The position numbers and the translations under genes are program-made. A stretch of DNA of 64,000 nucleotides from a virus. Shown one piece after another: positions 4,465 through 64,000 of the stretch. The first letter of the stretch is position 1; each line of letters starts with the position of its first letter. Where the stretch lies: positions 1-64,000 of the IMG/VR virus record IMGVR_UViG_3300010354_000044; one strand, given 5' to 3'. The notes under the pieces were generated by a model. The model was not told where the DNA came from, did not search any database, and worked only from the letters and a program-made list of their open reading frames with translations.

Positions 4465-4690
4465 TAGCGCTTACCCCGCTGATTTAGTCTAAATTTAGTC
4501 CACCGATGGCACCACCCCACCACAACCCCCACTACGCAGGGGGTTCGCGGCGTTGAATAGTTGCGGGGAGAGCAGATATTCAATAACATTAAATTAGTGA
4601 AAATTTGCAGAATACAACATATATAGCTAATTTACGAGAGGTATTAGTAGTCAATATGCAAAATGTTGGCCAGTATGAGAAATAAGCTTT

Positions 4691-4999
4691 ATGTATGCTG
4701 TATATAGCTTTTCAGGTCTACTAATGGGTAGTAACTCTAGCGCCTCTAGCGAATCACCCTCGTCTGTGCTCCAATCAAAACTAATCGGTCTACTACAGCA
4801 ATTTGCTGGCTGGGCTATTATTGCTGTTACTGCGTACCAGCTCCAAGCAGCCTTCGCTCTAAAGCAAGCGACTAACGATTTACATAACCTACAGCAAGAA
4901 GTTACTGAACTACAAAAACAGCTAGATACCCAAAATAATCGCCTGACTGTGACTGAGGTTATCATCAATGAGCGTTTCAAAGGTTTGGACAATAAATAG
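4691..4999 (+). CDS. Small membrane protein with coiled coil (possible holin-like); start may be 4724
   Basis: One hydrophobic segment (LIGLLQQFAGWAIIAVTAY) followed by a heptad-rich coiled coil; converges with terminase. Confidence 0.45.
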   Translation: MYAVYSFSGLLMGSNSSASSESPSSVLQSKLIGLLQQFAGWAIIAVTAYQLQAAFALKQATNDLHNLQQEVTELQKQLDTQNNRLTVTEVIINERFKGLDNK

Positions 5000-5000
5000 T

Positions 5001-6752
5001 CTATAGGCCGTCATAAATATCCAAGGGGGCAACGGATGTTTCCCAGACTGTATCTTTATAGCGAGTCTTGCCAAACTCTGAGAAATAAGCCGAGCCTGTA
5101 GCCTTAGTCTGCCGTTTTGTATTAAATACAAGTGGCGCAACGTTATAGTCCACAACTTTACCAGCTAACTGCCAGGCCACCCCAGCTACAGCATCCGCCA
5201 TATCCTTTGTAAAATCCTTGGGGTGGTCTATTTTTCTCCCTTTTATCAGTTGAATTCTAACCAGCTCATCAAGTAATAAGTTTCTATAGGGAGAGTCGTT
5301 AGGCAGTATAAGTCTACCCTCATGCATTAGAAGCCGTAAATTCTCGTACATTTCTAACTGTAGCTTCTGGGAAAAGTATAAGGACTCTGCTTTAATACCG
5401 TAAACGCGAAAGCGCTCCAAGGTTTCCCAGGAGTTATGGTGATCTGCTGTTATCTTACGAAGAGGTCTTTTGAGATTAATGCCCAGTAGTATATCCTGTA
5501 CGTTCGTAATAGATACATTTGTGTAAGCCGTAGGCTGCCAGGCCATTAGACCATCTATAACTACAAAGGTGCTGTCGGAGGCCTCCTTAACATCCCTTCT
5601 TTCAGCATGTCCTATAGCTATAGCATAGGCATCGTTTACAATGGCTGGGTCTAAGTGGGCTACTGAAACTGAGCTTGTGCCTACCAATTTAGTAATTTTA
5701 TGCCGCACCAAATCATCCGATCCTACGTACTGTTCAGTGATGATACAGGCGCGCCCGGTAAAGCACCTTTTTACTTCATCTTGGTCAAAGAAGGAATCCT
5801 CCGACGCACTTCGTATTCCTTCGCACTCTAAGGCCGCCCGCTTGGGATTAGTATTGTATTCTGAGGCAATGATTGGGTTCTCTCGGTGGTATATAGGATT
5901 AACATCCCAAGTCCTAAGCCTGTAACCTAACCATGTTTCGTCAATCTGCGATGATTCATACAATTTTTGTATGGAATCATTCTCGTACCATGCCGAAGAA
6001 ATGGCAATACGTTTAGCATCCGCACCGAAACTGATGCCCGAGATACCAATATTTGACCAAAGTTCAAGAGCATTAGACTCGCCATCTACATCCTTAAAAC
6101 GTGTAGCCTCATCCATAATAAGTAGAATAACGGCCTGCCCAACCTGTGAGGAGGACTGAGAGTTACCAGAGTAGATGTAGAGCATCTTCTCGTCATAGGT
6201 TATAGCTTCTTTTCCTATAAATATTTTCTGTTGGTTGATTAAAGATGTGAAATACCTGCACACCCTAACCATACCTGTTATCTGTGCAAAGATGGTACGC
6301 TTGGCCTGGGACGCAGAGGTAGCCAGCGCTAGTATACTAATAGGAGTAGAAGAGGCTATGCCGTAATATTTCTGAGGTTCTGGTATATGGCACAACCTAT
6401 AAAATTCATAGCAAGCAATAATAGAGCCAATAAGACTTTTACCAGACCGGCGACCAGCTTCAATAACCAAAGAGTTATAAGACCTGGGGGAGTCACCGCA
6501 GGTAGTTCTACTCTGCGCTGCCCAACTCTCCAAGATAGACATTTCATTGTCGCTGAGCTCTAAGCCGTAAAAAGTCTTTAGAATTACCCACTGCTGGATG
6601 TTAAGCTCAATCCCCCAGCGCTCATTGTCAATTTCTGTCTCAATAAATTCAACTATATTCTTTACAGTATCACTACTAGCAAATGCTGAATTTAATTCAA
6701 ATGCTAGGTCTTGAAATAAATTTCCACCTGCTTCAAAAAAGGGTTTAGGCAT
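5001..6752 (-). CDS. terL: Terminase large subunit
   Basis: Walker A GRRSGKS, Walker B LLIMDE, nuclease acidic motifs HLDPA and KDMADAVA. Confidence 0.93.
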   Translation of the reverse strand: MPKPFFEAGGNLFQDLAFELNSAFASSDTVKNIVEFIETEIDNERWGIELNIQQWVILKTFYGLELSDNEMSILESWAAQSRTTCGDSPRSYNSLVIEAGRRSGKSLIGSIIACYEFYRLCHIPEPQKYYGIASSTPISILALATSASQAKRTIFAQITGMVRVCRYFTSLINQQKIFIGKEAITYDEKMLYIYSGNSQSSSQVGQAVILLIMDEATRFKDVDGESNALELWSNIGISGISFGADAKRIAISSAWYENDSIQKLYESSQIDETWLGYRLRTWDVNPIYHRENPIIASEYNTNPKRAALECEGIRSASEDSFFDQDEVKRCFTGRACIITEQYVGSDDLVRHKITKLVGTSSVSVAHLDPAIVNDAYAIAIGHAERRDVKEASDSTFVVIDGLMAWQPTAYTNVSITNVQDILLGINLKRPLRKITADHHNSWETLERFRVYGIKAESLYFSQKLQLEMYENLRLLMHEGRLILPNDSPYRNLLLDELVRIQLIKGRKIDHPKDFTKDMADAVAGVAWQLAGKVVDYNVAPLVFNTKRQTKATGSAYFSEFGKTRYKDTVWETSVAPLDIYDGL

Positions 6753-37117: not shown

Positions 37118-37354
37118 ATGGTTTATGGCAAGCTTTTACTAGTTACTATTTTTGCTATGCTTTACCAACGATCTAAGGCTTCTAATCTGGCCCTACAACT
37201 TACATTGGTGTACATTATTGTAACTCTGAATTTTATATCAGCCGGTATTACTAATGCCGCGGCCACTAAAATAACAGCAGAACGTATGACGGGCCGGCCA
37301 TCGACCAATGAAGCTGTTACCTACAGGCATAAAACCACAACTCCTGCGTATTAA
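37118..37354 (+). CDS. Small hydrophobic protein
   Basis: Stop overlaps the giant gene's start (TAATG), suggesting translational coupling. Confidence 0.35.
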   Translation: MVYGKLLLVTIFAMLYQRSKASNLALQLTLVYIIVTLNFISAGITNAAATKITAERMTGRPSTNEAVTYRHKTTTPAY

Positions 37355-40300
37355 TGTCTTTATTCCCCGAGTACAATATATACGGGCCAGATAGTCTTGG
37401 GCGTGATGTACAAAGGTTAATAGATTCAGAAGCTGACCCTGAAAGTATTGCCCGACGTCAACTAACTTTGCCTAACCTAGAGGCAGAACGTGAAGTTGCA
37501 GCTTTTAGGTTAAACTACGGTGAGGTTCATACAAAGCCTGGGAATCGTTACAACATACTGGGCCAAAAGCTATATGACCCTTTACCTACTGCAGTAGAAG
37601 GTCGGTTGGCTACTGGCAATTTGCAGGCAAATATCACGCAAGATAGAACGATTCAATTAAGAGGGTTAGAGGTTATCAACACCCTTAACTCCGGGCTAGG
37701 GGGTACAGCAGCCCCCGCTCTTAGTAATCGCCAGGGTTCTATGGCAAATCGTTTTACTAAGACGACAGTTTTTGATAGCCTTGTAGGCCCTAGTGATACT
37801 AATATTTTACGGGGTCTTGTTAATAGTCCGGTATTTGAAGAGCCGGTTACTGTAAGGCCTACAACTCAAGATATATCAAACCAATTAGTCTTTCCGACTC
37901 AACAACGCACTAATTATAGTTCCCATTTAGGGGCCTTTGCTCATAAAAATGTTAATGAACAAGGGGTGCAGGAATTATACAATAGCGTTGTCAACCTACA
38001 AAATAGTCTGGGTAATGCTATTACGTCTATAGAAAGACAGTATGCCCAGCAAATGGTTAATGGCCGCATTGAACGAGTACTAGTCGGCGTTCGTGTAGGC
38101 ATTCGTAATTATAACGATTTATACGATGGCCTAGGTTTATATAGTCAGGCATCTTATCCCGGTGTACAGCGGGCGCACTATTTCAATTTCACAGTTAATA
38201 GAAACAACCAGGTTATAGAGACCAGTACTAATAGACTTATTACAGGCTCTCTAATCTCTCAAAACTCTGGTCATATCTCTAATATGGGGGGTCGCAATAG
38301 CGCTTATAACACCGTACTGGGTTTACTTTCTAGCTATGCTAGGTCGGCTGAAATTGAGGCTAAGTACGGAGTTACTCATAGTCTATTTAATATCATGGTT
38401 GCGAGGCAAGACTATAGCTCGTTAGGGCGGGTCTTTGCTGAAATGCTAATTCAACGTGACCAAAGTACTATTGTTAACCAGGGTAATAAGTTCAGGGAAA
38501 CGCTGGAGCTTTTACTAAGCACGACAAATAATAAGGGCCTATCGTCCATTGTAGAAAATACGGTTGATAGGATCGCCAGACAAGGTCTAGATTACTATAC
38601 AACCATTGGGGCTCTATTAGATAAAGATGTACTAGAGCAGCAAATTAATAAACTTTATAGTTATAGGAAGCAGCAGCTACTAAAGGCCTTTGAACCTATT
38701 ACGTCCCATGTAGGTGGGATTAACGAGACGTTTGGTCTAGCTGTAGATACAACTTTACGCAACCTCAATGAGCTTGTAGCTAACGATGCCGAGCAGTTTT
38801 CTATTCCTATAAACGGGCGGCGGGTCACTATTGCCGGGTTTGAAGACCTGAAAATGGCTGCGTTGTCCCTCAGTCCATCGGAGCACGCTCATTATGATTT
38901 TAGAAAGAATCAAGCGAGTAGTTCCATATTGCAGCTTTTGATGTCGCCGTTTCTAATGCCGCACGAAACAGGCTTCAGCGGCTCCCAGGCTGCCGCTCGG
39001 CTTGGTTTCTACCACATGGTAGAAACTAGGGGTGGGCGTAATATGTATGAAATATACCCTGCAGTCTACCGGCATGGTTTCGGCGGCACAAAACCTGGGG
39101 AGTACATTAAATTAATCTCAGCACAGTCCGCTAAGTCCAGCTTATTTAAATACACCTCCCATTTATATAACTTTACCGGAGCCAAGAAAGTCGTAGAGTT
39201 CTTTGAAACTCGTACAGTCTTTGAAGGTATGCCCGCCTTGCGCTATAGCTCCCTCAAAGAAGTAAGGGAACACTTGCAGAGTATCAACTATACAAGCGCT
39301 GATGAGATTATAAAAAATTACAAGACTCGGATGCATCTTGGGGCGGATGAGGAGGATGACACTGAGATTCTACTACTGCCCTTTAGAAAGGCCGAGCAGA
39401 TTAGCCAGCGGTTAAAGAATCTACTAGGCGGGCGTCCTATGCTAGAACTTAACACAACCTTCCGCCAAGCTATTCTGAAGCAGGATAAAGAGGCTCTGCT
39501 TAACTTGTTTGAGCGTAATGAGTTCGGGGATTTGTATCTAAGCGCGAACGCCCTGGCCGGTGAAGTGCCCGCTAATCTAAACAAGATACAATATGACCGT
39601 CTTATTCTAGAACGGAATCGTATCATAAAACGTCTAGGCTACGAAGGTAGGGCTTTAAGTGATAGCGAAAAACTCATACTATCCACCGAGCTTGTTAAGG
39701 CCATGCGGGCAGCAGAGCTTGATATATTTGACGGAGGCGGTTTTGTACAAGGTCGCCGGACCCGGCGAGTTGCTGTAGCAATGGGTGTGAACACCCTTAG
39801 CGACTTCATGCTTGTTAATAATGATTACTTGCAAGCATCGTCTTTTGGGTACATGCATGTTAGTAACCAAAAAATTGCTATTACGCATACCCTTAAAACA
39901 GATAAAGTCGGTACGATACGGCAGCCTGACCCTTTATTTGATGCAAAGGTCAACTTTATTGCTAGCGCATTTAGGCCAGGGACTATTGTCTACTTACAAC
40001 CAAAGGCTTTAGAGAATGAGAAGGTAAAGGATAGCTTAAGCAGATTAGCGGCTAAGTTACGCAGTGAATATCTGGCCAAGAATTTAGACAGCCGCTATTT
40101 AGATGCGCAGGTTACGCAAGCTTTACTACAGTCTTTCCCTGCTCTTGATTCAGTTAGCTTTACTGATGGTGAGTTAACCACAGTAATGCTCAAAGCTGGT
40201 GCATATCAGTTTACTAATGACTCCATTAACTTCCTAGGGGCTCTGGAAGGAAGCAGAATCCGACTAGGATTAATGAATAAAGGGGGGCGCTTTAATCTAA

Positions 40301-43300
40301 CCACTGGCCCTAGCTCAGAGCCTGGCACTGAGTTCTTCGAAATAAAAGTACCTGGAGAAGTCCGTAAGTACACAGGAGGTATGCTAGCTGTTGCCGGGCC
40401 TACCAAAGCAAAGCCAGGTCAGGGCGGCGGCCTAGAGCTAGAAATCCCCTGGTTAATAGAAACAGGAATTGGAGGTACAAGCCGGTCATCTTCCCTGACT
40501 AAGGGGCCTTGGTTAATGTACGACGGCGCCGGATTTGAAGCCTTTGGCACGGCTTTCAAAGCCAATTCTATGCTTTCACATCTCCAGAATGACAGCATCT
40601 TTGCCGTGATGAACCCGGGCGTTTTCAAGGCTTATAATTATGAATCTGGGCTGTCTATTCTACGGGATACTGCGTCTAGGCAAAGTCTACTGAATTTAAG
40701 TAGCGGCGATTTAAGTTTGATTCTGGGTATCGCGTTTTTACAAAAGAACACGGATACCCGTCTTCGGCAAGCCCTGGTCAATTACCTAGACAGTAACTCC
40801 AGTTCACTAGCAGTAAGCCCTTACTTACGAACGCTTATTCAAGATAAATCCTTTGGATCATCAGCGGCTAAGTTAGAAAACCTCTTACTAACAGCTCCTG
40901 ACTTAGCTACCTTAGTAGATAGTCCAACCCTTAGAGACTTTGGAGATAAATTAGCTGAGCAATTTGAGAGTGGGACTTTTGATATACAGAGCCGACTTGA
41001 AGCTATTGTTAATAGGGCTCTTAAAGGGTCTACGACTATTTATGAACAGATAGAAGGGGATGTACGGGGCATTCGCACGTTTGACGAGCGAAACTTTAGT
41101 GTACGTAGTGCCGGCATTTTAGCTGATATTATTCATACAACACAACAAACAATAGACCCAAGCCGTACTTTAGGTCGTATAACAGGCAGTAAACCCTTAA
41201 CAGGCCTTAACTTTATAGATGATCAAGGCCGCCCTAACGTTAGAAAATTTATAGATAACCGCGATTTCCGGGCTGCATCGTTAGACATGGCGCAAAAACT
41301 AAGGGTGCGCTCTCTGTTGCCCAATCAGAGTATTTTAGAGAGCTCTTTAAGTCAGCTCAGGGAGGGGGATGCTCTTTATAAGGACATAGAGAACCTGCTC
41401 TATGTTATCCATAGTTCGTTAATGGCGTCTCCCTACATTGAACGAGCCATTAATTTACTACCTAGTCGTGTTTTATACCCGGCAGGCTCTGAGGACGCTG
41501 TAGGCCTAGAATACCATTATTCTTTAAGCCTTAGTAAAAAAGAGTTTGCGGCCTTACGGGGGCAGGGGCTTGATATGGAAAGGTTCACCCAAGCCCAAGC
41601 TGCTTATAGCACTGTTGTAACCCATAGTGGTGTTAATGAAATTAGCCGTAGGATGGAGATTATATCTCCATTTGGTGTAGACCCAGCGCAGCGGAATTTA
41701 GGTCGTATCGTCTCGGCGCTTATACAGAATTACAATGAGATATCGGGTAAAGCTCAGTTTATTGGTAATGATAACCTTAGCCCCTTAGATGCTATTGTCC
41801 GTAGTATAAGCGCCGGGGATGAGACTGAGCTAAATAGCTTAATGTCCCGGTATCAACTTATTAATCAAGCCGTAAGGTATCATCGCGGCGTAGGCCCCTC
41901 TGACCAACAAAGTGCGGTTAATCTGATAAGTGCGGTTAATCTGATAACTGCGCTTAACCCGAGTCGGCTTGATTTAAGTCAAGCCACTGACGAGCAAATT
42001 AGAACCTTAGGAGCTTTATATAACCTAAGGGGCGATGTTACTACTATCCGGCAAAGGTTGTCGGAGTTAGGCCCTACGTTGGGCCGAGGTCTGCTTTATT
42101 TAGACCGCAGTGACAATCTATTTAGTGAAAGGCGCTTGGCTTTGTCTAAAGCCATTATAACCTACTCGGAGTTAAGACGAAATAAGGGGCTTACTGACTT
42201 AAGTTACAACCTAAGTCCTTATGCTGCTGACGTACAGTCTGCATTAGTAACTTCAAATGTTAATAGCTACAATATTGGGTTTCTTGAGTTTGAGCAGGCC
42301 TTAAATTTAGTCACAGACCAGTCCTCCGGACGCCTTGATGTTAGATACGCCGATAATAGGTCTACAAAGATACTTAATGTAGCCAGTAAATTGCAAGCTA
42401 ATGACGCTTTTGTAGAACGGCTAGCGTTGAACGCCGCGGGTACTAGCACTACAGATACGTTTATTAATTCTCTACAGCGAATAGTAGCCGGTACAGAGAA
42501 TATTCTTAAATTCTATGGAAAGGAGACTGAACAAGCCCAGAGAGCACTAAAACTTCGTAGTGAAGTTTACGATACAAAAACGTTGCTCCTACCTGCTATT
42601 GAAACATATACAGCGGGAGACGGGACTATTATAAAACTAGCTGAGTCAGATAGTAACGGAAAAGTACAGTATACAGATACTCCCGTAGTTCAACTAGGGT
42701 TGGATGTTCTAAGTCAAATACCTACTAGATTTGAATCTTACATTAATGAAGTTGTGGAACGCCAGCAACGTATTCGTGAGCTGATTCCTAAATTCCAGGA
42801 AGTGGTTAACCAATTACAGAAGGGCTTCATCTCTAATGCATCTGTCAGCGATATCAGCATTATAGAAGAGATGCAGCGATTAGCTTACGAAAGTCAACAT
42901 GATTTAGAATCTATTTTAACGTCTGTTCTGCAGCAGAATGCTGAGAACGAGAAGCGTAAATACCCTGGGGTGGCGTTTACAGCAGTAGCTGATTACTTAG
43001 CTACACCTACAGAGGCTTTTGTCGGTAAGCGAGTTACCTCCACTGGGTTAAACCAGGTAGTTAGGGATGCGAAAGCTACTTTAAACTCCCCGGAGCTGTC
43101 CAAGGTAGAAGTAGAAGCACTACAACGTATCGGCCAGTTAACCGGGTATGTCAACAGGGCTGGGGGCTTAAGCGGAGCAAGCCAGTCTACTAACATGCTC
43201 CATGATGTTAAGTCTCAGGCTATTCTAAAAGAACGTGGTCAGCTAGAGAATAATCAATTACAGCTATCTCTACAGGGTAATGAAACAGCCTTGATTGTTT

Positions 43301-46300
43301 CTATGTACGGACGATTCGGGGTCCATGGCGGTGACTTTGATGGTGACTCTTATCAGCTGATATTCGGATTTAGGGATATCCAAGAAAGCCTTGTCAAGGC
43401 TATTCAGCACCGCGATGCTATCCGTAATAGCCTGCTAAACCTACAGAGTCAATCTACTCTAAATTCAGATTACAATGTCGCTATTCAAGGTAGGATATCC
43501 AATCTACAGACAGCCCTTACCGCCAGCCAGCAGGACGTAGATAGGTTAATTACTGAGGTAGATAATCTAAGCACCATTACCGCCGACCGGGTTAAAGAGG
43601 GTATGCGTAGGCACGTAGCTGCTTTTACGGGTATTCCCTTGTCTTTGGCTCTAAAACCGGAATATTACAGCGATGAAGAAATCGCGTACATGATTGAACA
43701 GCAGCGAGGGGTTACTCCGGGTTTGACTGACGCCGGCGAGAAGTATGGCGATCAAATAACAAAGTTTACTCAGCTGTTTAACAGACTTAATCCAACCACT
43801 CTCGCTAGTGCCTCGGATGAGATTATTGATTCTGAAGCTAGCCGACTCAAGTTCAGCGCAGAGGAGCTTAGTCTCTTCAAGGAGTTTGCCCGCCAAGATA
43901 ATTTGTACGCGGACAATCTAACGGCTTCGGACCGTAACCGTTTATTTACCGAATCTATCACGTCTTATTTTAACCTGCACATGGGTTTATCTGAAGGGAA
44001 TAAATTTGCCCAGGCCGCCGCAGGTTCTGTATTGGATTTAGGAACCTTTGAGGTTCTCCAGACGGTAGTAGGTAATGTAGGGACATCCTTAATTGGTGAA
44101 GGCTATAACGCTATCACGACACTTATTGGCCGCAGTGTTCTAGCTAGAACTATGGGGCAGGCCTTAAATGACCCTACTACAAATATAGGCGAGGGAATCG
44201 TTCAAGCGCTGGATACCCTAAATACCAATAATACTTTAGACGATAATGTAACCCGTATCAAAGACTTATTTTCAGAAGGGCGATTAAAGCAAACGGCGGC
44301 GTTTGCCGAGTCCCGGGCCCAGCAGTTACAAATGAATTTAGGGCTTATCCAGCAAATCATCCGGGACTCGCTAAAGCCAAAACAAGAGGGAGGGACTATT
44401 GCGGCCATTGCGGAGCAGATGGGCGATGAAAGCTTTAAGACTAAGTTCCTTAACGAGCAAGATACGGACACGCGCATGGAGTTGTTGCGCAACTTCGTGT
44501 CCACCAGAGCGGTGACAACCATGGTTGGGAGTCAGACCTCTGGTAATACTTCCCTTATCAATACCTTCGGGGCTATCTTTTTATTAGCTGACTATACAAA
44601 GCTAGAGGACCCTACCTCTATGCTACGTAGTGATAGCCCTCGGTACGATACGCTGCGCCGCACCCAGCAACTATACAAATCAGCCGCAGAAGGGCTTGAC
44701 GTTAATCTTGAAAGTTTAGACGTTATCAGCCGCTTGAGACTCAAAGACAAAGAGTTTGTGGCCCGGATGGCGACAGATGAAGAATTTTTGGTACGTCAGA
44801 CAATAACTGATCTGATCAATACAGCGGTAGCTGAGGAGGCTTTCAATAAGTACTATGCTTATGGTCAAAGTGACGAATCTCTAATAAGCCGAGCTAACAT
44901 TGAGCGAGATAACTATATTAAAGCGTTATCCGACTCTAACCTTACAGGGGATAGCGGGCTGTACTTCAAGAACGAGCAGCACAGAGAAGCCGTCAGGAGA
45001 AGCCTCCATATAGATGGAAATACCGATGACTTTTTCTTTACGGCAGAGACGGCCCGGCAGTCCTTGTTAGACATAACTCTGGTGCGTAAAACCTTCCTGG
45101 GCATGACTGAGAGCGATGTAGAGTTCTCCCGGAAGGTCAATAGGGCCGGGTCCATTCTATCGCAGCCTGACATTAGTGCCAGTTTTGCCCCTTTTGCCAG
45201 TGCCCAGGCCGAGAACCTTGTAGCTATCCAACAATGGGCTAAGCGTGGTCGTATGGACGACCCTAGAGCCATGACTACATTTGAGATTGGTTCATCCGCA
45301 CGTTTATTTGACGCAATAGACCAGGTCCACCAGAATCTGACGGAGGAGTTTGGTTCTCTAGAAAACGCATTATCTAAACAGGAAGTATACGCAGCCTATT
45401 CTCAGATGGCCGAGCTCGCCGGCGTGTTTGATATTAGCAGGGAGGATAGTAATATTCTAAGCTTGGCGCTTCAGACAAGAGTTGAGGGCCGGCAGTCTAT
45501 ATTCTCAGAGTTAGCTAATTACAATGCCGGACTTGCTTATATGCAGGAACGTATTAACCAGCAACAGGATATTATTTCAAAAGGTACCTTAACTGATGCA
45601 GACGAAAGTCGGTTAAATACCCTTTACGCAGACCTAGAAGCTTTTGCCACCGGCTTAGATGCTAATGCCAATCAGAACGAGGCCTTCAGAGCTAAGGTAA
45701 GAGAGATTGGCGAGTTTCAGCGCTCCTTAAAAATGGACCAGGCTCAGCAGAGAAAGGCCACCTACGCCAATATTATTAATACAAAAATACATACACCTAC
45801 CTCCCTAGATGTTACTGGGTATGGGTTTAATAACACCTTGGAATTGTTTGCGGCCCCTATTATTGGGGCTGCGTTAATCCAAGGGGGACTTGACGAGCGG
45901 TTAGTCTCTGGGACTTACGATTTACTGCAGGGTCTGTCTACCGTTGAGGGTTCGGCCGGCAATGTAAGAGCACTAGAAGCTGACCGGTTATTTAGGTTGG
46001 CGCGCTTTAAAGAGCAAATGTTACAAGGGGAAAGTTTGCTTTTAGGTGCAACTCAAGCCCTAGCTGCCGAGACATTTTTCATGGGAACTGCGTCTTTAAT
46101 TGCCTCCAAATTACGTTCCCCCAACTCCCCCTCCCCTAACTCCCCTAACAATCGGCAGTCTGGTTTAAGTGGAATTATGGCCGAGGCAGTGGTTACAGCT
46201 GCTGCCTTGGCTTTTACTCGCCGGAACAACCAATATGGTATTGACGGAGAACCTTACCGAAATCTCGCTGCAGAGGCTCTATTACAGACAGCGGAAGCAA

Positions 46301-46509
46301 TAGAATCTAGCACCAGCGAATGGTTAGAACGTGCTATGGATATCCAGGTAGAAACGGAAGATCAAATTGTTACCTTTGATTTTGATCCTTCCATTGCCCC
46401 TAGTAGCTATGAAGAGCGTATTGTAACTGGCTGGATTGAGATGAGCATAGAAAACTCTGACGAATTTGCTAATGCTTATTATGAAACTGGGAATTATATT
46501 GATGGGTAA
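37354..46509 (+). CDS. Giant protein with single-chain two-barrel RNA polymerase motifs (putative virion RNAP, possibly tape-measure-fused)
   Basis: GGDFDGDS (DFDGD at 43333-43347) preceded by VNRAG and KRKYPG; upstream R..TKG and VMNPG; downstream LIGEGYN and IRDSLK. Confidence 0.8.
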   Translation: MSLFPEYNIYGPDSLGRDVQRLIDSEADPESIARRQLTLPNLEAEREVAAFRLNYGEVHTKPGNRYNILGQKLYDPLPTAVEGRLATGNLQANITQDRTIQLRGLEVINTLNSGLGGTAAPALSNRQGSMANRFTKTTVFDSLVGPSDTNILRGLVNSPVFEEPVTVRPTTQDISNQLVFPTQQRTNYSSHLGAFAHKNVNEQGVQELYNSVVNLQNSLGNAITSIERQYAQQMVNGRIERVLVGVRVGIRNYNDLYDGLGLYSQASYPGVQRAHYFNFTVNRNNQVIETSTNRLITGSLISQNSGHISNMGGRNSAYNTVLGLLSSYARSAEIEAKYGVTHSLFNIMVARQDYSSLGRVFAEMLIQRDQSTIVNQGNKFRETLELLLSTTNNKGLSSIVENTVDRIARQGLDYYTTIGALLDKDVLEQQINKLYSYRKQQLLKAFEPITSHVGGINETFGLAVDTTLRNLNELVANDAEQFSIPINGRRVTIAGFEDLKMAALSLSPSEHAHYDFRKNQASSSILQLLMSPFLMPHETGFSGSQAAARLGFYHMVETRGGRNMYEIYPAVYRHGFGGTKPGEYIKLISAQSAKSSLFKYTSHLYNFTGAKKVVEFFETRTVFEGMPALRYSSLKEVREHLQSINYTSADEIIKNYKTRMHLGADEEDDTEILLLPFRKAEQISQRLKNLLGGRPMLELNTTFRQAILKQDKEALLNLFERNEFGDLYLSANALAGEVPANLNKIQYDRLILERNRIIKRLGYEGRALSDSEKLILSTELVKAMRAAELDIFDGGGFVQGRRTRRVAVAMGVNTLSDFMLVNNDYLQASSFGYMHVSNQKIAITHTLKTDKVGTIRQPDPLFDAKVNFIASAFRPGTIVYLQPKALENEKVKDSLSRLAAKLRSEYLAKNLDSRYLDAQVTQALLQSFPALDSVSFTDGELTTVMLKAGAYQFTNDSINFLGALEGSRIRLGLMNKGGRFNLTTGPSSEPGTEFFEIKVPGEVRKYTGGMLAVAGPTKAKPGQGGGLELEIPWLIETGIGGTSRSSSLTKGPWLMYDGAGFEAFGTAFKANSMLSHLQNDSIFAVMNPGVFKAYNYESGLSILRDTASRQSLLNLSSGDLSLILGIAFLQKNTDTRLRQALVNYLDSNSSSLAVSPYLRTLIQDKSFGSSAAKLENLLLTAPDLATLVDSPTLRDFGDKLAEQFESGTFDIQSRLEAIVNRALKGSTTIYEQIEGDVRGIRTFDERNFSVRSAGILADIIHTTQQTIDPSRTLGRITGSKPLTGLNFIDDQGRPNVRKFIDNRDFRAASLDMAQKLRVRSLLPNQSILESSLSQLREGDALYKDIENLLYVIHSSLMASPYIERAINLLPSRVLYPAGSEDAVGLEYHYSLSLSKKEFAALRGQGLDMERFTQAQAAYSTVVTHSGVNEISRRMEIISPFGVDPAQRNLGRIVSALIQNYNEISGKAQFIGNDNLSPLDAIVRSISAGDETELNSLMSRYQLINQAVRYHRGVGPSDQQSAVNLISAVNLITALNPSRLDLSQATDEQIRTLGALYNLRGDVTTIRQRLSELGPTLGRGLLYLDRSDNLFSERRLALSKAIITYSELRRNKGLTDLSYNLSPYAADVQSALVTSNVNSYNIGFLEFEQALNLVTDQSSGRLDVRYADNRSTKILNVASKLQANDAFVERLALNAAGTSTTDTFINSLQRIVAGTENILKFYGKETEQAQRALKLRSEVYDTKTLLLPAIETYTAGDGTIIKLAESDSNGKVQYTDTPVVQLGLDVLSQIPTRFESYINEVVERQQRIRELIPKFQEVVNQLQKGFISNASVSDISIIEEMQRLAYESQHDLESILTSVLQQNAENEKRKYPGVAFTAVADYLATPTEAFVGKRVTSTGLNQVVRDAKATLNSPELSKVEVEALQRIGQLTGYVNRAGGLSGASQSTNMLHDVKSQAILKERGQLENNQLQLSLQGNETALIVSMYGRFGVHGGDFDGDSYQLIFGFRDIQESLVKAIQHRDAIRNSLLNLQSQSTLNSDYNVAIQGRISNLQTALTASQQDVDRLITEVDNLSTITADRVKEGMRRHVAAFTGIPLSLALKPEYYSDEEIAYMIEQQRGVTPGLTDAGEKYGDQITKFTQLFNRLNPTTLASASDEIIDSEASRLKFSAEELSLFKEFARQDNLYADNLTASDRNRLFTESITSYFNLHMGLSEGNKFAQAAAGSVLDLGTFEVLQTVVGNVGTSLIGEGYNAITTLIGRSVLARTMGQALNDPTTNIGEGIVQALDTLNTNNTLDDNVTRIKDLFSEGRLKQTAAFAESRAQQLQMNLGLIQQIIRDSLKPKQEGGTIAAIAEQMGDESFKTKFLNEQDTDTRMELLRNFVSTRAVTTMVGSQTSGNTSLINTFGAIFLLADYTKLEDPTSMLRSDSPRYDTLRRTQQLYKSAAEGLDVNLESLDVISRLRLKDKEFVARMATDEEFLVRQTITDLINTAVAEEAFNKYYAYGQSDESLISRANIERDNYIKALSDSNLTGDSGLYFKNEQHREAVRRSLHIDGNTDDFFFTAETARQSLLDITLVRKTFLGMTESDVEFSRKVNRAGSILSQPDISASFAPFASAQAENLVAIQQWAKRGRMDDPRAMTTFEIGSSARLFDAIDQVHQNLTEEFGSLENALSKQEVYAAYSQMAELAGVFDISREDSNILSLALQTRVEGRQSIFSELANYNAGLAYMQERINQQQDIISKGTLTDADESRLNTLYADLEAFATGLDANANQNEAFRAKVREIGEFQRSLKMDQAQQRKATYANIINTKIHTPTSLDVTGYGFNNTLELFAAPIIGAALIQGGLDERLVSGTYDLLQGLSTVEGSAGNVRALEADRLFRLARFKEQMLQGESLLLGATQALAAETFFMGTASLIASKLRSPNSPSPNSPNNRQSGLSGIMAEAVVTAAALAFTRRNNQYGIDGEPYRNLAAEALLQTAEAIESSTSEWLERAMDIQVETEDQIVTFDFDPSIAPSSYEERIVTGWIEMSIENSDEFANAYYETGNYIDG
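41911..41946 (+). repeat. 18-bp tandem duplication (SAVNLI x2) inside the giant gene
   Basis: AGTGCGGTTAATCTGATA twice, followed by a degenerate third copy. Confidence 0.8.
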
Positions 46510-59572: not shown

Positions 59573-59887
59573 TCAGAAGTCTAATTCCTGAGCCGCTGGA
59601 AGTGTAACCCCCTTGGAGGCCTTTACGGACTTATCCGCAACAGGCCTTGGCGTCTCTTTTACTACCGGCTCTTGTATAGCAACGGTGCTGCTGCGCGATC
59701 GCTCCACCGCGGCGTTAGTAGGAGGGGCTGTTGACTGAGGTTTATCTAAATAATCCCACGAGACCGTAAGCATAAACTCAAAGACATCGGCCCAGTTTAG
59801 CCTGGCGCGGCGCCTGTTTTCTTGCAGCCGGGTTTTTAATGCTTTTAAACCCTCTACAATCTTTAGGTCCGATATCCTATAGTTCAT
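59573..59887 (-). CDS. Putative ParR-like adaptor
   Basis: Small gene coupled (ATGA) downstream of parM; helical N-terminus, low-complexity tail ending ELDF. Confidence 0.45.
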   Translation of the reverse strand: MNYRISDLKIVEGLKALKTRLQENRRRARLNWADVFEFMLTVSWDYLDKPQSTAPPTNAAVERSRSSTVAIQEPVVKETPRPVADKSVKASKGVTLPAAQELDF

Positions 59888-60972
59888 CCTACCATGACTC
59901 CTACGCGCTGGTTGCTTAGCCTATACAGGGCATGTACATTGCTGAGCTCGGGTTGATCAGGGATATAGATTTCAAAATTCTTCAAAGGGGCGCGCAGAAT
60001 GTTAGCTCCACCGCCGAAGAACATAATACCACTCATCCCTTCACTGCCCGTAGAACCTTTAAATCTATTACTGCACTTAGACTGAATCTCTAGATAATAC
60101 GAGCGAGCTACTTTCCTAAAGATATCAGAAAAGTCAAAGCGCTGATTATTATCCAAGGGGTACTCATATCGCGGTTTGCCGTCATGGCCAATCACCGGGC
60201 GGCATAAAGCATCCATAATAATACCAGAATTGGGAATACCAGTTACTGCATTACGAAATTCTGGGTTATCTGCCAATTGGCTTGTAATAGCGACTACGCC
60301 CGCCAAGGGTGAGCCATTAGAGCCATTATAAGATTCGCGGTCTAGTAGGGTGTTGTCACTATCTAAGGTCACCATCTCAACGGTGCCCCCGCCAATATCC
60401 ACACCTAAAACAGTTCCATATTCCGATAGGTAACCATCTTCCCGCGCAAATACAACAGCATCTAAGCCCTCCGGGCGGCAAACCTTAGGCTTAATAGCAA
60501 CCGTCATATCATAGGCGCCGCTATGGTCCGTATAGGTATACCGGAAAGTCCGCGCGAGGGCCCGCTCCAATCGCTCAGCGACGGTCATCGTAATCTCTTC
60601 ACCCACGTCATCGCGCCCGCGGCAAATTAAACTAGGTTCAGGAAGACTCCAATAAAGTTCTACCTCATAGGAGCAGACTCGCTTACTTAAAGGCCCTAGT
60701 GTAGATAAAACCATAGGCACATAATTTTCAGGCTCAAGCTTGTTTAAGTCCATCAGCTCATGGGCCGCCGCCCCATACTTACGAGCCTGATGCCCAATAT
60801 GCCACGCCCCATATTCATTAGATTCAATAATTACATTATCTGGCTTTACTTCAATCCGGCGGCCAATTAGCTGAGCCATAACTGACTTGCGAGTCCTCGG
60901 CGCCGTCTCATCATCACGTAGTCCATAAGTTGTGTAATTACCAACGTCAATAGCTTGACTAATCGTAGGCAT
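59884..60972 (-). CDS. parM: Actin-like ATPase, ParM/StbA family
   Basis: Phosphate-1 AIDVGNYTT, connect PEG, phosphate-2 GVDIGGGTVE, adenosine FFGGGA, N..A connect. Confidence 0.85.
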   Translation of the reverse strand: MPTISQAIDVGNYTTYGLRDDETAPRTRKSVMAQLIGRRIEVKPDNVIIESNEYGAWHIGHQARKYGAAAHELMDLNKLEPENYVPMVLSTLGPLSKRVCSYEVELYWSLPEPSLICRGRDDVGEEITMTVAERLERALARTFRYTYTDHSGAYDMTVAIKPKVCRPEGLDAVVFAREDGYLSEYGTVLGVDIGGGTVEMVTLDSDNTLLDRESYNGSNGSPLAGVVAITSQLADNPEFRNAVTGIPNSGIIMDALCRPVIGHDGKPRYEYPLDNNQRFDFSDIFRKVARSYYLEIQSKCSNRFKGSTGSEGMSGIMFFGGGANILRAPLKNFEIYIPDQPELSNVHALYRLSNQRVGVMVG

Positions 60973-61055
60973 ATATATATATAACTGAATTCGACTTATT
61001 AGAGTATACCTAAATTACCTAAAACTTGCACCTTACTTACATACAAAACTCACCC

Positions 61056-61078
61056 AGCCGCTCTTGAGCGGCTTTTTT
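61056..61078 (+). terminator. Intrinsic terminator
   Basis: AGCCGCTC-TT-GAGCGGCT followed by TTTTT. Confidence 0.7.
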
Positions 61079-61397
61079 ATTTGTACTTGCCCAACTTGTA
61101 TGGGTACAAATTTCCAGCATTAACCCTACAAAGAGAGATGGCTGCGACCAGCAGGGTAAAGGGGCAAAGGAGTAAAGCTAGTTGCACTCTTACAACTACC
61201 GAGGAATCGTCGGTAGTTAACCCCCCATCTGCTGGTAAAGGAGGGTGGAGTAAAGAGATTAAAAAGACTAAAGAGACTAAGTATAAATACCTAGAAGGCG
61301 CTATAGCGAAAAAATGGCGCGGATTTTAAGTGGGTAGTTATGGGTCTAATGGACATCCCCCCTCGGGTGTGGAATGAGAAATGAAGACCTGCTTCAA

Positions 61398-61431
61398 AAG
61401 ACCTTGCCGAGTGGTCTTAAAAAATGCTCGG
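61398..61431 (+). ncRNA. H-type pseudoknot, divergent relative of the repeated module A
   Basis: S1 AAGACC/GGTCTT, S2 CCGAGT/GCTCGG, A-rich loop AAAAAAT. Confidence 0.5.
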
Positions 61432-61485
61432 ACGGTTTGCCTAGTCCGCTAAAGCTAGGTTGCTGTCGATTCCCAAGGAGGGAAT

Positions 61486-61668
61486 ATGTCTAAAGTAACT
61501 CTAACTGCCGCAACTCTCGTAGTCCTTCTAGGGCTAGGAGGTTGTATGGAGCAGGAGTCTAGCTCCTGCTCGGTCAACGAGCAGGGGGCAGTAGTGAGCG
61601 AGGGGCACGACTGCCCCTCCTCCCATGACCGATTCCCCCGGCGCCGCCAAGGGCCTGGGACCTGGTAA
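61486..61668 (+). CDS. Small lipoprotein
   Basis: AAGGAGG SD; signal peptide with lipobox LGLGG-C. Confidence 0.65.
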   Translation: MSKVTLTAATLVVLLGLGGCMEQESSSCSVNEQGAVVSEGHDCPSSHDRFPRRRQGPGTW

Positions 61669-61674
61669 CTAAGA

Positions 61675-61859
61675 TGACCTACTACAGGGGTCATTAAATA
61701 AGCTGTAGTTCCCTACCCTGGTGGGCTTGGTGCGGTCCGATTCCGCACTAGGGTTTTGCCTTGAATTTCTTTCTCCAAGGATATTCACACAGGTACTTAG
61801 AGTACAGGCGAAATCTTGTGTATGGATGCCTTTATGCCTACACAAGCTAGGAGAAAAAG
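61675..61859 (+). ncRNA. Intergenic RNA cassette 1: pseudoknot (61675-61709) + tRNA-like element (61710-61754) + leader (61758-61859)
   Basis: Repeated modules; stems read directly from the sequence. Confidence 0.8.
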
Positions 61860-62189
61860 ATGGATTTCAACTTCGTTGACTATAACGGTGCCGACCTCGC
61901 TGGTGAAGACCTCACCGGCGCCAACCTCGTCTGCGCCAACCTTAGCGGCGCCGACCTTACCGGTGCCGACCTCAGCGGTGCCGACCTCGGCGGCGCCAAC
62001 TTTGACGGTGCCAACCTCACCGGCGCCAACCTCACCGGTGCTGACCTCTTTGACACTGTCATCACTAACGCGAACTTTAGCGGTGCTAACCTCAGCGGTG
62101 CTAACCTTAGCCTCGTTGATTTTATTAACTGCAATCTGGTTGGCACCAATTTCGCCGGTGCCAACCTCTACGGCCTCCGCGTTAGCTAA
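61860..62189 (+). CDS. Pentapeptide repeat protein
   Basis: Tandem A(D/N)LxG repeats; AGGAGA SD. Confidence 0.9.
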   Translation: MDFNFVDYNGADLAGEDLTGANLVCANLSGADLTGADLSGADLGGANFDGANLTGANLTGADLFDTVITNANFSGANLSGANLSLVDFINCNLVGTNFAGANLYGLRVS

Positions 62190-62194
62190 CTAAA

Positions 62195-62336
62195 CGACCT
62201 ACTACAGGGGTCACTAAATAAGCTGTAGTGCCCTACACCCAATACAAGGGGGTGCCTGGTAGGTTCGACTCCTACCTAGGGTCTGTCAACAATGCTCTTC
62301 GTTTTGTTGACGATTTTTTAACCATAAGGAGGAAAT
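62195..62336 (+). ncRNA. Intergenic RNA cassette 2: pseudoknot (62195-62229) + tRNA-like element (62230-62282) + hairpin/T-run leader
   Basis: Canonical T-loop GG-TTCGACT-CC; GTCAACAA/TTGTTGAC hairpin, then TTTTTT and AAGGAGG. Confidence 0.8.
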
Positions 62337-62738
62337 ATGGCAAGTGTTGACTCTTGGGCTGCAGAGATGCAGTTCAAGGCCCTGTGCAAAAAACGGGGCA
62401 TTAAGTTAGTGGCGATATCTGCAAAGGTATTGCCACAGGGGTTACGGTTTGTCGGAAAGCGTAAGCTAGAAAACGCTTTCCGACATTTAAGACTTGCTCA
62501 CCCGAGTGGGCAATTTCCAGCCGGCGAGGTCCTGGACCTCGTCTTTTCTCTGGACGCGGTTATCCAGTACCGCGGTCAGGTAATTGGGGTTGATGTGACG
62601 ATGGACCCCAGCCAGGTTGCAGCTAAAGAAGAGAAGCTGCGCTCTTTGGCCAAAGCGCACGCTGCGATCGGGATTCAACGCTCAGTGACTTACTGCAGCA
62701 CGATTGAATCCTTTGACGAATGGCTGCTGCGCCTATAA
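62337..62738 (+). CDS. Hypothetical protein, possible PD-(D/E)XK-like nuclease fold
   Basis: E...LD...LDAVI...IGVDVT...K pattern; strong SD. Confidence 0.55.
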   Translation: MASVDSWAAEMQFKALCKKRGIKLVAISAKVLPQGLRFVGKRKLENAFRHLRLAHPSGQFPAGEVLDLVFSLDAVIQYRGQVIGVDVTMDPSQVAAKEEKLRSLAKAHAAIGIQRSVTYCSTIESFDEWLLRL

Positions 62739-62885
62739 CCCTGCCCCGGTGGGCTACTCATGGTTCAACTCCATGACAGGGCATTGCCTTGAATTCCTTT
62801 CTCCAGGAATTTTCACTCAGGTACTTAGAGTACAGGCGCAATCTTGTGTATGGATGCCTTTATGCCTACACAAGCTAGGAGAAAC
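62738..62885 (+). ncRNA. Intergenic RNA cassette 3: tRNA-like element (62738-62782) + leader, no pseudoknot
   Basis: CCCTG/CAGGG, CCC-CGGT-GGG, TCATGG-TTCAACT-CCATGA; leader near-identical to cassette 1. Confidence 0.8.
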
Positions 62886-63488
62886 ATGGCTGTACGTCGC
62901 GAATTTCAAGTCCTCTCTGCCATTAGCAGTGAAGAGGACGTGTTCGACAATCTCCTGCCCGTGCGGGATATAATCTCAGGCCTAGAAGGCCTGCTATTGT
63001 GTAGTGAGGCCTGTACGTGGCCTCAGGATTTGGTTTACGAAGCAACCTGGCTTGAGGGGTGCTATACTCCTCGGGCAGTTAAGGATGACCCTAGGCTGGC
63101 ACTAGGGTTTCATCCCTATACCGAGACACGGTGGAAATACCACTCAGGCGTCTTACGCCTGAGTACGCAGACTACGGAGGGGTGGATTTCGGTTATCAAA
63201 CGTACTAAACGGGCCATGATGGCCTATCTGGAAGGTATTCATCTTCCAGAGGTAGACCTCTGCGGGGTAGACCTTTGGAAGGCTGACCTTCGGGGGGCAA
63301 ACCTTCAGGGGGCAGACCTCAGGGGAGCTGACCTCCGAAGGGCTAACCTTCAAGGGGCTGACCTTCAAGGGGCTGACCTTCGAGGAGCTAAGCTTCTAGA
63401 GGCCAACCTTCTAGAGGCTGACCTTCGGGGAGCCGACCTTTGGGGGGCTTTAGTAGAGAAGGCCACCCTACAAAAGGCGAAGACCTAA
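62886..63488 (+). CDS. Protein with C-terminal pentapeptide repeats (true start 62886, MAVRREF...)
   Basis: ADLRGANLQG repeats; SD AGGAGA precedes ATG 62886, whereas the track start 62844 lies in the repeated leader. Confidence 0.85.
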   Translation: MAVRREFQVLSAISSEEDVFDNLLPVRDIISGLEGLLLCSEACTWPQDLVYEATWLEGCYTPRAVKDDPRLALGFHPYTETRWKYHSGVLRLSTQTTEGWISVIKRTKRAMMAYLEGIHLPEVDLCGVDLWKADLRGANLQGADLRGADLRRANLQGADLQGADLRGAKLLEANLLEADLRGADLWGALVEKATLQKAKT

Positions 63489-63503
63489 AGTTACTTCCCT
63501 GCT

Positions 63504-63685
63504 TGACCTACTACAGGGGTCATTAAATAAGCTGTAGTGCCCTACTCTGGTGAGCTAGGTGCGGTCCGATTCCGCACTAGGGTTTTGCTTTGTCTATTTA
63601 TCTCCATTTAGACACACAGGTACTTAGAGTACAGGCGCAATCTTACTTGGGACGCCTTTATGCCCTTGTAAGCTAGGAGAACATC
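63504..63685 (+). ncRNA. Intergenic RNA cassette 4: pseudoknot (63504-63538) + tRNA-like element (63539-63583) + leader (63587-63685)
   Basis: Same modules with compensatory changes. Confidence 0.8.
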
Positions 63686-64000
63686 ATGTCTATTATCAAA
63701 CAGACTTCTTCAGTAGTCCCGACTATTGAGGAAGCAACTGCCCTAGCATGCACCCTACGGATGCAGGGGATACCCTGCTATGTGGGGAAAGTTGGAACCC
63801 ACTACCGGGTAGACCCGGCTCTTCCCAAGCAGTACAAGAAACGGGCTAGTAAGAGACCTGCCCGGGACTACATTTCCCTCCTAGGAGGGGATGACTGGTG
63901 CCTTAAGGCGCCGACCAAAGTCCCAAAAACGGGAGACTGGGTGGATTGTACCCCCGAAATGGGGGTGGCGGCCTGCCAGGCCGCTTTGGCAGAGAGGGAC
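63686..64000 (+). CDS. Hypothetical protein, runs off the right edge of the window
   Basis: AGGAGA SD, then ATG 63686 (MSIIKQTSSVVPTIEEA...), open to the window end. Confidence 0.7.
   Translation, partial: MSIIKQTSSVVPTIEEATALACTLRMQGIPCYVGKVGTHYRVDPALPKQYKKRASKRPARDYISLLGGDDWCLKAPTKVPKTGDWVDCTPEMGVAACQAALAERD

Follow-up and report, generated by a model that had tools for sequence, protein, structure and literature searches.

A Conserved, Structured Leader RNA That May Mask the Shine-Dalgarno Sequences of Three Accessory Genes in an Uncultured Freshwater Phage

Described Systems and Overview of Module C

Pairing of a Shine-Dalgarno (SD) sequence with a distant motif of the same message is known from the icaR mRNA of Staphylococcus aureus, where an anti-SD motif in the 3' untranslated region (UTR) pairs with the SD of its own transcript, represses translation and recruits RNase III. 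The E. coli rpsO (S15) operator adopts either a two-hairpin form or a pseudoknot; a loop pairs at the ribosome-binding site, and the protein selects the form (PMC3985624). Phage N4 has three clustered early hairpin promoters, with a 3-nt loop and a GC-rich heptamer centred at -11, flanked by inverted repeats (PMC4496689), and in T4-type phages there are PeSL cassettes, in which a sigma70 promoter and a terminator stem-loop flank non-essential genes (Arbiol et al. 2010, PMC2839356). The element examined here, module C, lies in the first 64 kb of IMG/VR record IMGVR_UViG_3300010354_000044 (171,984 bp), which derives from an uncultured freshwater phage; these 64,000 nt are referred to below as the window. 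Exactly three copies of module C are present in the whole record, all on the coding strand and each ending in an SD and an ATG, and they precede the genes for a 109-aa pentapeptide-repeat protein, a 200-aa protein in which a unique N-domain is joined to pentapeptide repeats, and an orphan protein of 132 aa. The Pfam Pentapeptide family is recognised in the first two of these proteins, with E-values of 1.8e-31 and 9.9e-32, respectively.

Judged by sequence comparison, module C is a real, conserved and structured leader that is new to the databases, and it most likely serves as a translational lock on accessory cassettes, by a mechanism that is plausible but unproven. We assign a probability of about 0.5 to the reading that it is a cis-acting, structured 5' leader masking the SD of three accessory-gene cassettes in a phage operon. 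Under this reading, an exposed UCUCC loop would pair with GGAGA(AA) about 75 nt downstream, either as a loop-to-strand pseudoknot or within a nested alternative fold. By competing with 16S rRNA, this pairing would keep translation of the downstream gene low or make it conditional, and a phage or host protein that tips the balance would most likely bind at the second hairpin and at the loop of the third. The arrangement would resemble icaR in that a distant pyrimidine motif of the same mRNA pairs with the SD, although the icaR motif lies in the 3' UTR and that of module C in the 5' leader. The likeness to rpsO is that of a leader with a hairpin loop pairing to ribosome-binding-site sequence (PMC3985624), but there is no sequence or Rfam relation between the two, the target of the module C loop would be the SD itself, reached across about 75 nt and two further hairpins, and the genes concerned are phage accessory genes. 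If confirmed, module C would represent an undescribed phage leader-RNA motif controlling the translation of fast-evolving accessory genes, two of which encode pentapeptide-repeat proteins; as the evidence stands, the conserved structure is well supported and its distribution is very narrow.

Architecture and Covariation

Five variants of module C were compared, comprising the three copies of the record and two from related phage contigs, all of the related contigs being from freshwater metagenomes. ViennaRNA predicts the same architecture in four of the five, in which a short helix (P1) closes a three-way junction and is followed by hairpin 3 and then the SD. Enclosed in the junction are hairpin 1 and the invariant hairpin 2 (GUACU-UAG-AGUAC, with a 5-bp stem and a 3-nt loop). 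The stem sequence of hairpin 1 varies freely (TGAAT/ATTCA, AATTCCT/AGGAATT and TGTCTA/TAGACA in the three copies) and its loop always carries UCUCC. The stems of hairpin 3 are CTTGTGTA/TACACAAG, or CTTAC..GTAAG, around a conserved loop AYGCCUUUAUG, and the hairpin ends 3 nt 5' of the SD. All three copies finish in an invariant CUAGGAGAA, and the ATG follows 4-6 nt past GGAG.

Copy 1 (61753-61862, + strand), the leader of the 109-aa pentapeptide-repeat gene, has P1 at 61757-61761/61806-61810, hairpin 1 at 61762-61787 with its UCUCC at 61772-61776, hairpin 2 at 61793-61805, hairpin 3 at 61815-61846, the SD GGAGA at 61850-61854 and the ATG at 61860. For copy 2 (62781-62888, + strand), the leader of the 200-aa gene, the corresponding positions are 62785-62789/62834-62838 for P1, 62792-62798/62805-62811 for the hairpin 1 stem, 62800-62804 for UCUCC, 62821-62833 for hairpin 2, 62843-62874 for hairpin 3, 62878-62882 for the SD and 62886 for the ATG. 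Copy 3 (63582-63688, + strand) leads the 132-aa orphan gene and has orthologues on the related contigs L252 (226-330) and L248 (2855-2962). Its P1 pairs 63586-63590 (UGCUU, giving two G.U pairs) with 63633-63637, and is followed by hairpin 1 at 63591-63614 (UCUCC at 63601-63605), hairpin 2 at 63620-63632, hairpin 3 at 63642-63672 (with two U.U mismatches), the SD at 63676-63680 and the ATG at 63686. A 21-mer core, CAGGTACTTAGAGTACAGGCG, begins at 61790, 62818 and 63617. Against these three occurrences in the window, none of 100 shuffles contains it, and pattern, nhmmer and covariance-model searches detected it nowhere else in the record. The initial annotation had described three copies, each directly 5' of a gene start, with TCTCC at 61772, 62800 and 63601 and GGAGA at 61850, 62878 and 63676, and the copy number, these coordinates, the 21-mer and the stems were all found to be correct.

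The predicted stems are supported by compensatory change. In the three copies alone, 96% of the cells of the stem alignment pair and five pairs are altered on both sides, a number equalled by one in 500 shuffles. When all five variants are included, 95% of cells pair, compared with 26-54% if the partners are slid, and ten cells are altered on both sides, which none of 500 shuffles reaches; the two-sided pair changes across the five variants comprise two in hairpin 1 and three in hairpin 3. The orthologues of copy 3 on L252 and L253 differ from it at one unpaired site near the ATG and at four stem positions of hairpin 3, and the L252 changes convert the two U.U mismatches of copy 3 to G-C and U-A, and one G-C to G.U. 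Conservation extends to the whole intergenic spacer, made up of module C and two preceding elements, modules A and B (see later), which is 90.6% identical between this phage and L252, against 71-72% for the coding DNA on both flanks. By this comparison, the spacer is under strong purifying selection combined with RNA-type compensation. The proposal that a conserved structured element precedes three gene starts on the coding strand is thus upheld by two stems with compensatory changes and by spacer conservation above that of the flanking genes.

One detail of the fold had to be refined. The stems of the initial annotation stand, but the AGGCG sequence, for which pairing to the YGCCU of the hairpin 3 loop had been proposed as a second pseudoknot, has a second perfect partner in the UGCCU/UGCUU at the 5' edge of the element, and it is this pairing (P1) that ViennaRNA favours in four of the five variants. 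The two partners (5' UGCYU and hairpin 3 loop YGCCU) are mutually exclusive, both are perfect in all five variants, and each shows one single-sided change only (C to U or U to C, giving G.U or G-C). The nested helix P1 and the loop pseudoknot appear to be equally good competitors, between which the present sequences cannot choose. Both of the proposed pseudoknots are compatible with all five variants, and the columns concerned do not vary.

Two exclusive partners for AGGCG in five of five variants, a multi-stem junction with invariant junction nucleotides, and alternative folds lying within 1.4-4.1 kcal/mol are features that a true riboswitch would share. In such a switch, AGGCG would change partners when the junction bound a small molecule, and the anti-SD would switch with it. 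We regard this as highly improbable, given that no Rfam match was obtained at E up to 10, that the regulated genes have no metabolic link, that the distribution is narrow and that a second 5-nt partner is fairly often expected by chance. The idea of a ligand-binding riboswitch, put forward in the initial annotation, accordingly finds no support from Rfam, from the non-metabolic genes downstream or from the confinement of module C to a small phage lineage. A related and very unlikely possibility is a sensor RNA, in which the junction and the AGGCG swap would respond to an infection signal (a defence nucleotide messenger or an early phage protein) and so release the SD. Pentapeptide-repeat proteins are a class suspected of counter-defence roles. 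If the sensor reading were true, these possible counter-defence genes would be translated only when needed, alongside mRNA cutting guided by tRNA mimics (see later).

A conserved upstream ORF (open reading frame) beginning at the AUG in the hairpin 3 loop was considered and rejected, as it is not kept in the more distant leader on contig L254 and runs to differing stops among the copies.

Complementarity between the Hairpin 1 Loop and the SD

As originally proposed, an anti-SD is displayed in a hairpin loop and is complementary to the SD about 75 nt downstream, and this complementarity between UCUCC and GGAGA is kept in all five variants. It extends to 7 nt in three of the five, including copies 1 and 2 (UUUCUCC/GGAGAAA), and is 5 nt in copy 3. 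The loop is predicted to be open, with a probability of being unpaired above 0.9 in four of the five variants, and duplex energies for loop and SD range from -7.9 to -9.9 kcal/mol. A nested alternative joining anti-SD and SD lies 1.4-4.1 kcal/mol above the minimum; the loop-to-SD pseudoknot is not scorable by the folding tool. The probability that a random conserved loop hexamer would be complementary to the invariant SD window is about 0.007, and composition-preserving shuffles of the loop gave P = 0.025, 0.10 and 0.04.

Several observations weigh against SD masking. Some 5-nt complement to the SD is found within 90 nt upstream in 35% of shuffles, and copy 3 has a match of 5 nt only. The invariance of UCUCC and GGAGA in all five variants leaves the key pairing without covariation support, and the minimum-energy folds place the SD opposite coding sequence that is not conserved. 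The folding energies of copies 1-3 are unremarkable (z = -1.1, -0.2 and -0.4) and the minus strand folds about as well as the plus strand, from which it follows that thermodynamics alone says little and that the case for module C rests on covariation and conservation, not on stability. The carriers belong to three phage lineages only, and recombination can make the copies of one genome alike, so that the effective sample is small. Lastly, transcription, 5' ends and processing are all inferred from the DNA sequence.

The strongest rival accepts the structured leader and takes the anti-SD as coincidental, with module C acting as a protein-binding operator and/or a 5'-end stabiliser whose loops (UCUCC and those of hairpins 2 and 3) are protein contacts. 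Possible binders include a phage translational repressor, ribosomal protein S1 and a nuclease guard. Hairpins that proteins recognise classically keep their loops while their stems vary freely, the conserved hairpin 2 and hairpin 3 loop have no convincing RNA partner, and the match between loop and SD is only moderately improbable. P1 begins 3-4 nt past the tRNA-like element (module B), which would suit a 5'-terminal stabiliser only if that element is cleaved. The genes around the locus yielded no candidate RNA-binding protein, and masking of the SD by a matching tract recurs in the leaders of all the distant homologues described in the next section. Such an operator or stabiliser is unlikely as the sole explanation, and it is compatible with the favoured model of SD masking.

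SD-Burying Leaders in More Distant Phages

Relatives of the 200-aa gene that are more distant (44-62% identity) were found on contigs L254-L259, where an intrinsic terminator and, after it, an SD-burying hairpin stand before every copy of the gene. In L254, L257, L258 and L259, the upstream strands match the flanks of their own SD, as in CUCCUUGAG/CUCRAGGAG, UCCUCCAG/UUGGAGGA and UUUCUCC/GGAGAAA, and these SD-burying folds greatly exceed shuffles in stability (z = -2.3 to -5.1). Matching anti-SD/SD variants of this kind were seen only in such non-homologous leaders of related genes. They share with module C an upstream pyrimidine tract that is complementary to the SD and its flanks and that stands before homologous gene starts. 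They differ in having a single long hairpin after an intrinsic terminator, with the anti-SD as its 5' strand and directly facing the SD; module C keeps the SD outside hairpin 3 and carries its anti-SD in the loop of another hairpin, which forms part of a three-way junction. Because the distant leaders all bury the SD, its masking looks like a conserved requirement of these cassettes, and the presence of a matching upstream tract in every one of them makes a purely coincidental anti-SD in module C less likely. Module C would then be a more elaborate solution, with the anti-SD relocated to a hairpin loop.

The inner hairpin loop of the L254 leader, AUGCUUUUACUG, resembles the hairpin 3 loop of module C, AUGCCUUUAUG, and the module C covariance model picks out the L254 loop sites weakly (E = 0.011-0.03), so a common origin of the two leaders is possible. 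In L254 (1-6806; with L255, L256 and L257) there are at least six consecutive genes, most of them with pentapeptide repeats, and each is preceded by one and the same unit of about 90 nt that consists of an intrinsic terminator and an SD-burying hairpin. The downstream genes of L254 would be expressible only with terminator read-through.

Searches for Homologues and Known RNA Families

Rfam 15 gave no matches at gathering thresholds over the whole window. With E-values up to 10 over 60900-64000, there was none within module C besides the 3' end of a weak match to RAGATH-36 (21.6 bits, against a gathering threshold of 70), the aligned part of which is the T-arm-like hairpin upstream. Self-cleaving ribozymes were also considered, and no Rfam ribozyme family matched. 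The covariance-model search for homologues added no new sites in the record, and the two further variants became known through protein look-ups. In these look-ups the 132-aa protein had two relatives at 74-77% identity, both on contigs that carry module C; an exhaustive HMMER search with the same protein returned one real relative.

Module C was accordingly detected in this record and in two related groups of freshwater contigs only. In IMG/VR there was no match to the exact 21-mer, to a pattern of the hairpin 3 loop plus SD, or to the L254 leader. Scans with 14- and 15-mers gave about 240 loci, all chance matches, and the best nhmmer hit (E = 0.016) fell in a coding region. The 18-mer core had one chance match in JGI metagenome contigs, within a gene, and none in GTDB genomes, where the L254 motif gave eight scattered chance matches. 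These DNA scans of IMG/VR, JGI and GTDB may omit near relatives of the window's own record. A blastn comparison with GenBank phages recovered similarity in pentapeptide-repeat coding sequence only. The N-terminus of the helicase-polymerase protein encoded downstream had no relatives in IMG/VR, and a protein search with the nearby 133-aa gene found only its own cluster.

The Invariant Palindrome and the Giant Proteins

The operon lies on the + strand, where a series of small ORFs starts at about 61.4 kb and ends at a giant 2,841-aa helicase/NADAR/macro protein (record 65417-73942). DFDGD is a motif of the catalytic loop in two-barrel RNA polymerases. One such motif each is present in a 3,051-aa protein (window 37354-46509) and in the 2,841-aa protein, at residues 1994 and 2027, respectively, which fits an earlier reading in which the phage has two-barrel RNA polymerases of its own. 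In the 2,841-aa protein Pfam recognised the helicase, NADAR and macro parts only, and it did not recognise the polymerase parts.

With a giant polymerase gene adjoining, the invariant core of module C can also be viewed at the DNA level, as a palindrome (GTACT-TAG-AGTAC) that serves as a promoter hairpin for a giant phage polymerase, in the manner of N4, or as an operator for a dimeric protein. Transcripts would then begin downstream of the palindrome, and hairpin 1 would lie outside the mRNA. The core does have the 5-7 bp stem and 3-nt loop of the N4 promoters, it is invariant in all five variants, and its three copies are clustered and point in one direction in a phage with a giant polymerase, just as N4 has three early hairpin promoters (PMC4496689). 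The DFDGD motif of both giant proteins, a scan of the + strand spacers that revealed no sigma70-like promoter between genes, and the equal folding of the two strands agree with this view. The core is, however, AT-rich (5 G/C in 13 bases) and lacks the GC-rich heptamer found at -11 in N4 (PMC4496689), the N4 enzyme is of the T7-like single-subunit type and not of the two-barrel type to which DFDGD belongs, and early transcripts that a crAss-like phage produces with its two-barrel virion polymerase, the one such enzyme studied, showed no shared upstream motif. A DNA promoter also leaves unexplained the maintained pairing of hairpin 1 and a P1 that contains G.U pairs and spans the core; the surrounding pairs and flanking modules behave as RNA, and the distant relatives are without such a hairpin. 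A role as promoter or DNA operator is, on balance, quite unlikely.

Recombination and Cassette Exchange

The contigs L248-L251 represent a phage that is about 90% identical to the present one and is without both pentapeptide genes. The single module C of L248 is an exact hybrid, in which hairpin 1 of copy 2 and hairpin 3 of copy 3 are joined in the invariant core, indicating that recombination through the repeat removed or added the gene between copies 2 and 3. Repeats of module A likewise flank the first pentapeptide gene on both sides. When 61676-62336 and 62739-63688 are compared with L248 2241-2962, the junctions fall within the repeated modules A and C, and the accessory genes therefore behave as cassettes that are swapped by homologous recombination between RNA-module repeats. 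As read from these junctions, module C also marks recombination boundaries, and its invariant core is the apparent crossover point for cassette gain and loss, independently of regulation. At L248 2745-2810 there is a duplication of about 22 nt of the 3' end of the 133-aa gene (GAATCCTTTGACGAA...), directly before a tRNA-like element, and this looks like a scar of junction rearrangements.

The PeSL cassettes of T4-type phages are similar in that recombination between repeated modules explains the differences in gene content of close relatives, as for the L248 hybrid. They differ in that module C has no sigma70-like + strand site in the spacers and no U-tract after hairpins 1-3, and looks like an untranslated leader. 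It could be argued from the L248 gene content, its hybrid module C and the alike behaviour of PeSL cassettes (PMC2839356) that the repeats persist chiefly as scaffolds for recombination or as boundaries of the cassettes, moving accessory genes about, and have no regulatory role themselves. Recombination requires identity, not kept pairing, and this explanation accounts neither for the compensatory changes nor for one conserved loop on three different stems, nor for conservation above that of coding DNA; we consider it scarcely credible as a full account. Module C also illustrates how repeats of this sort can serve in addition as crossover points for cassette swapping.

Modules A and B and a Second Leader Type

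Module B (61711-61753, + strand) is a tRNA-like, Y-shaped element with a 5-bp acceptor-like stem, a small hairpin and a T-arm-like hairpin with a 7-nt loop. Equivalents precede copy 2 (62739-62781) and copy 3 (63540-63582) of module C. In all copies it ends 3-4 nt 5' of P1, and its stems differ compensatorily between copies; ARAGORN predicted no tRNA at module B. Module A (61676-61709, + strand), which lies 5' of module B, is a candidate H-type pseudoknot with GACC..GGTC interleaved with CTACAG..CTGTAG, and an A-rich loop RTTAAATA. It recurs at 62196-62229 and 63505-63538, and variants whose second stem differs lie at 61399, 64093, 64667 and 65337 of the record. In L252, CTACAG/CTGTAG is changed to TTACAG/CTGTAA and GACC to GACT, the second stem covarying between copies and phages. 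Given these RNA-type compensatory changes in modules A and B, the whole spacer is probably transcribed, a picture that the absence of sigma70-like + strand promoters between the genes also fits.

On the simplest reading, one long polycistronic transcript would be cut at the tRNA mimics by cleavage of the RNase P/Z type. As the leader starts 3-4 nt past the tRNA-like element, cleavage there would put P1 at the new 5' end of the mRNA, where it might also protect the message; module C probably caps a processed 5' end in this way. It would be one part of an unusual RNA kit (pseudoknot, tRNA mimic and leader) that punctuates the operon before the giant polymerase gene and, if confirmed, a bacterial-virus example of tRNA-mimic punctuation coupled to a translational lock.

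The spacer before the 133-aa gene (62290-62336) has modules A and B and is without module C. A terminator-like hairpin (GTCAACAA..TTGTTGAC plus a T-run) begins there 3 nt past the tRNA-like element, which means that all four tRNA-like elements are directly followed by a stable stem-loop. The loop of this leader hairpin (62298-62316) was considered as a second loop-displayed anti-SD, and was dropped as it performed no better than shuffled loops (P = 0.49).

A second type of leader stands before four other genes, including the giant helicase-polymerase ORF, at 61399-61485 and within 64089-65416 of the record (L007 positions 4089-4300, 4667-4750 and 5337-5416). It is made up of module A, interleaved stems CGGAC..CCTAG..GTCCG..CTAGG (CCAGC/GCTGG in variants) and then TTCCCAAGGAGGGAA, in which UUCCC can pair with the SD GGGAA. 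The 3' strand of the second stem of module A overlaps the first stem of this leader (CTCGG and CGGAC), so the two may be mutually exclusive.

Other Features of the Neighbourhood

The first ORF of the operon (61486-61668, 60 aa) has a signal-peptide-like hydrophobic N-terminus followed by GGC and resembles a small lipoprotein; it had no family match. On the minus strand at 59884-60972 is a gene for an Alp7A-like actin (Pfam Alp7A_like_C; PHROG partition protein). The divergent spacer beside it (61100-61290) contains short iterated motifs of the GTAAAG type, which are of the GTAAGT type in the L248 counterpart (1690-1870), and these could be a centromere or operator of the partition system. A TATAAAT box at about 61283 opens a block that is near-identical between this phage and L248, and may be the promoter of the operon.

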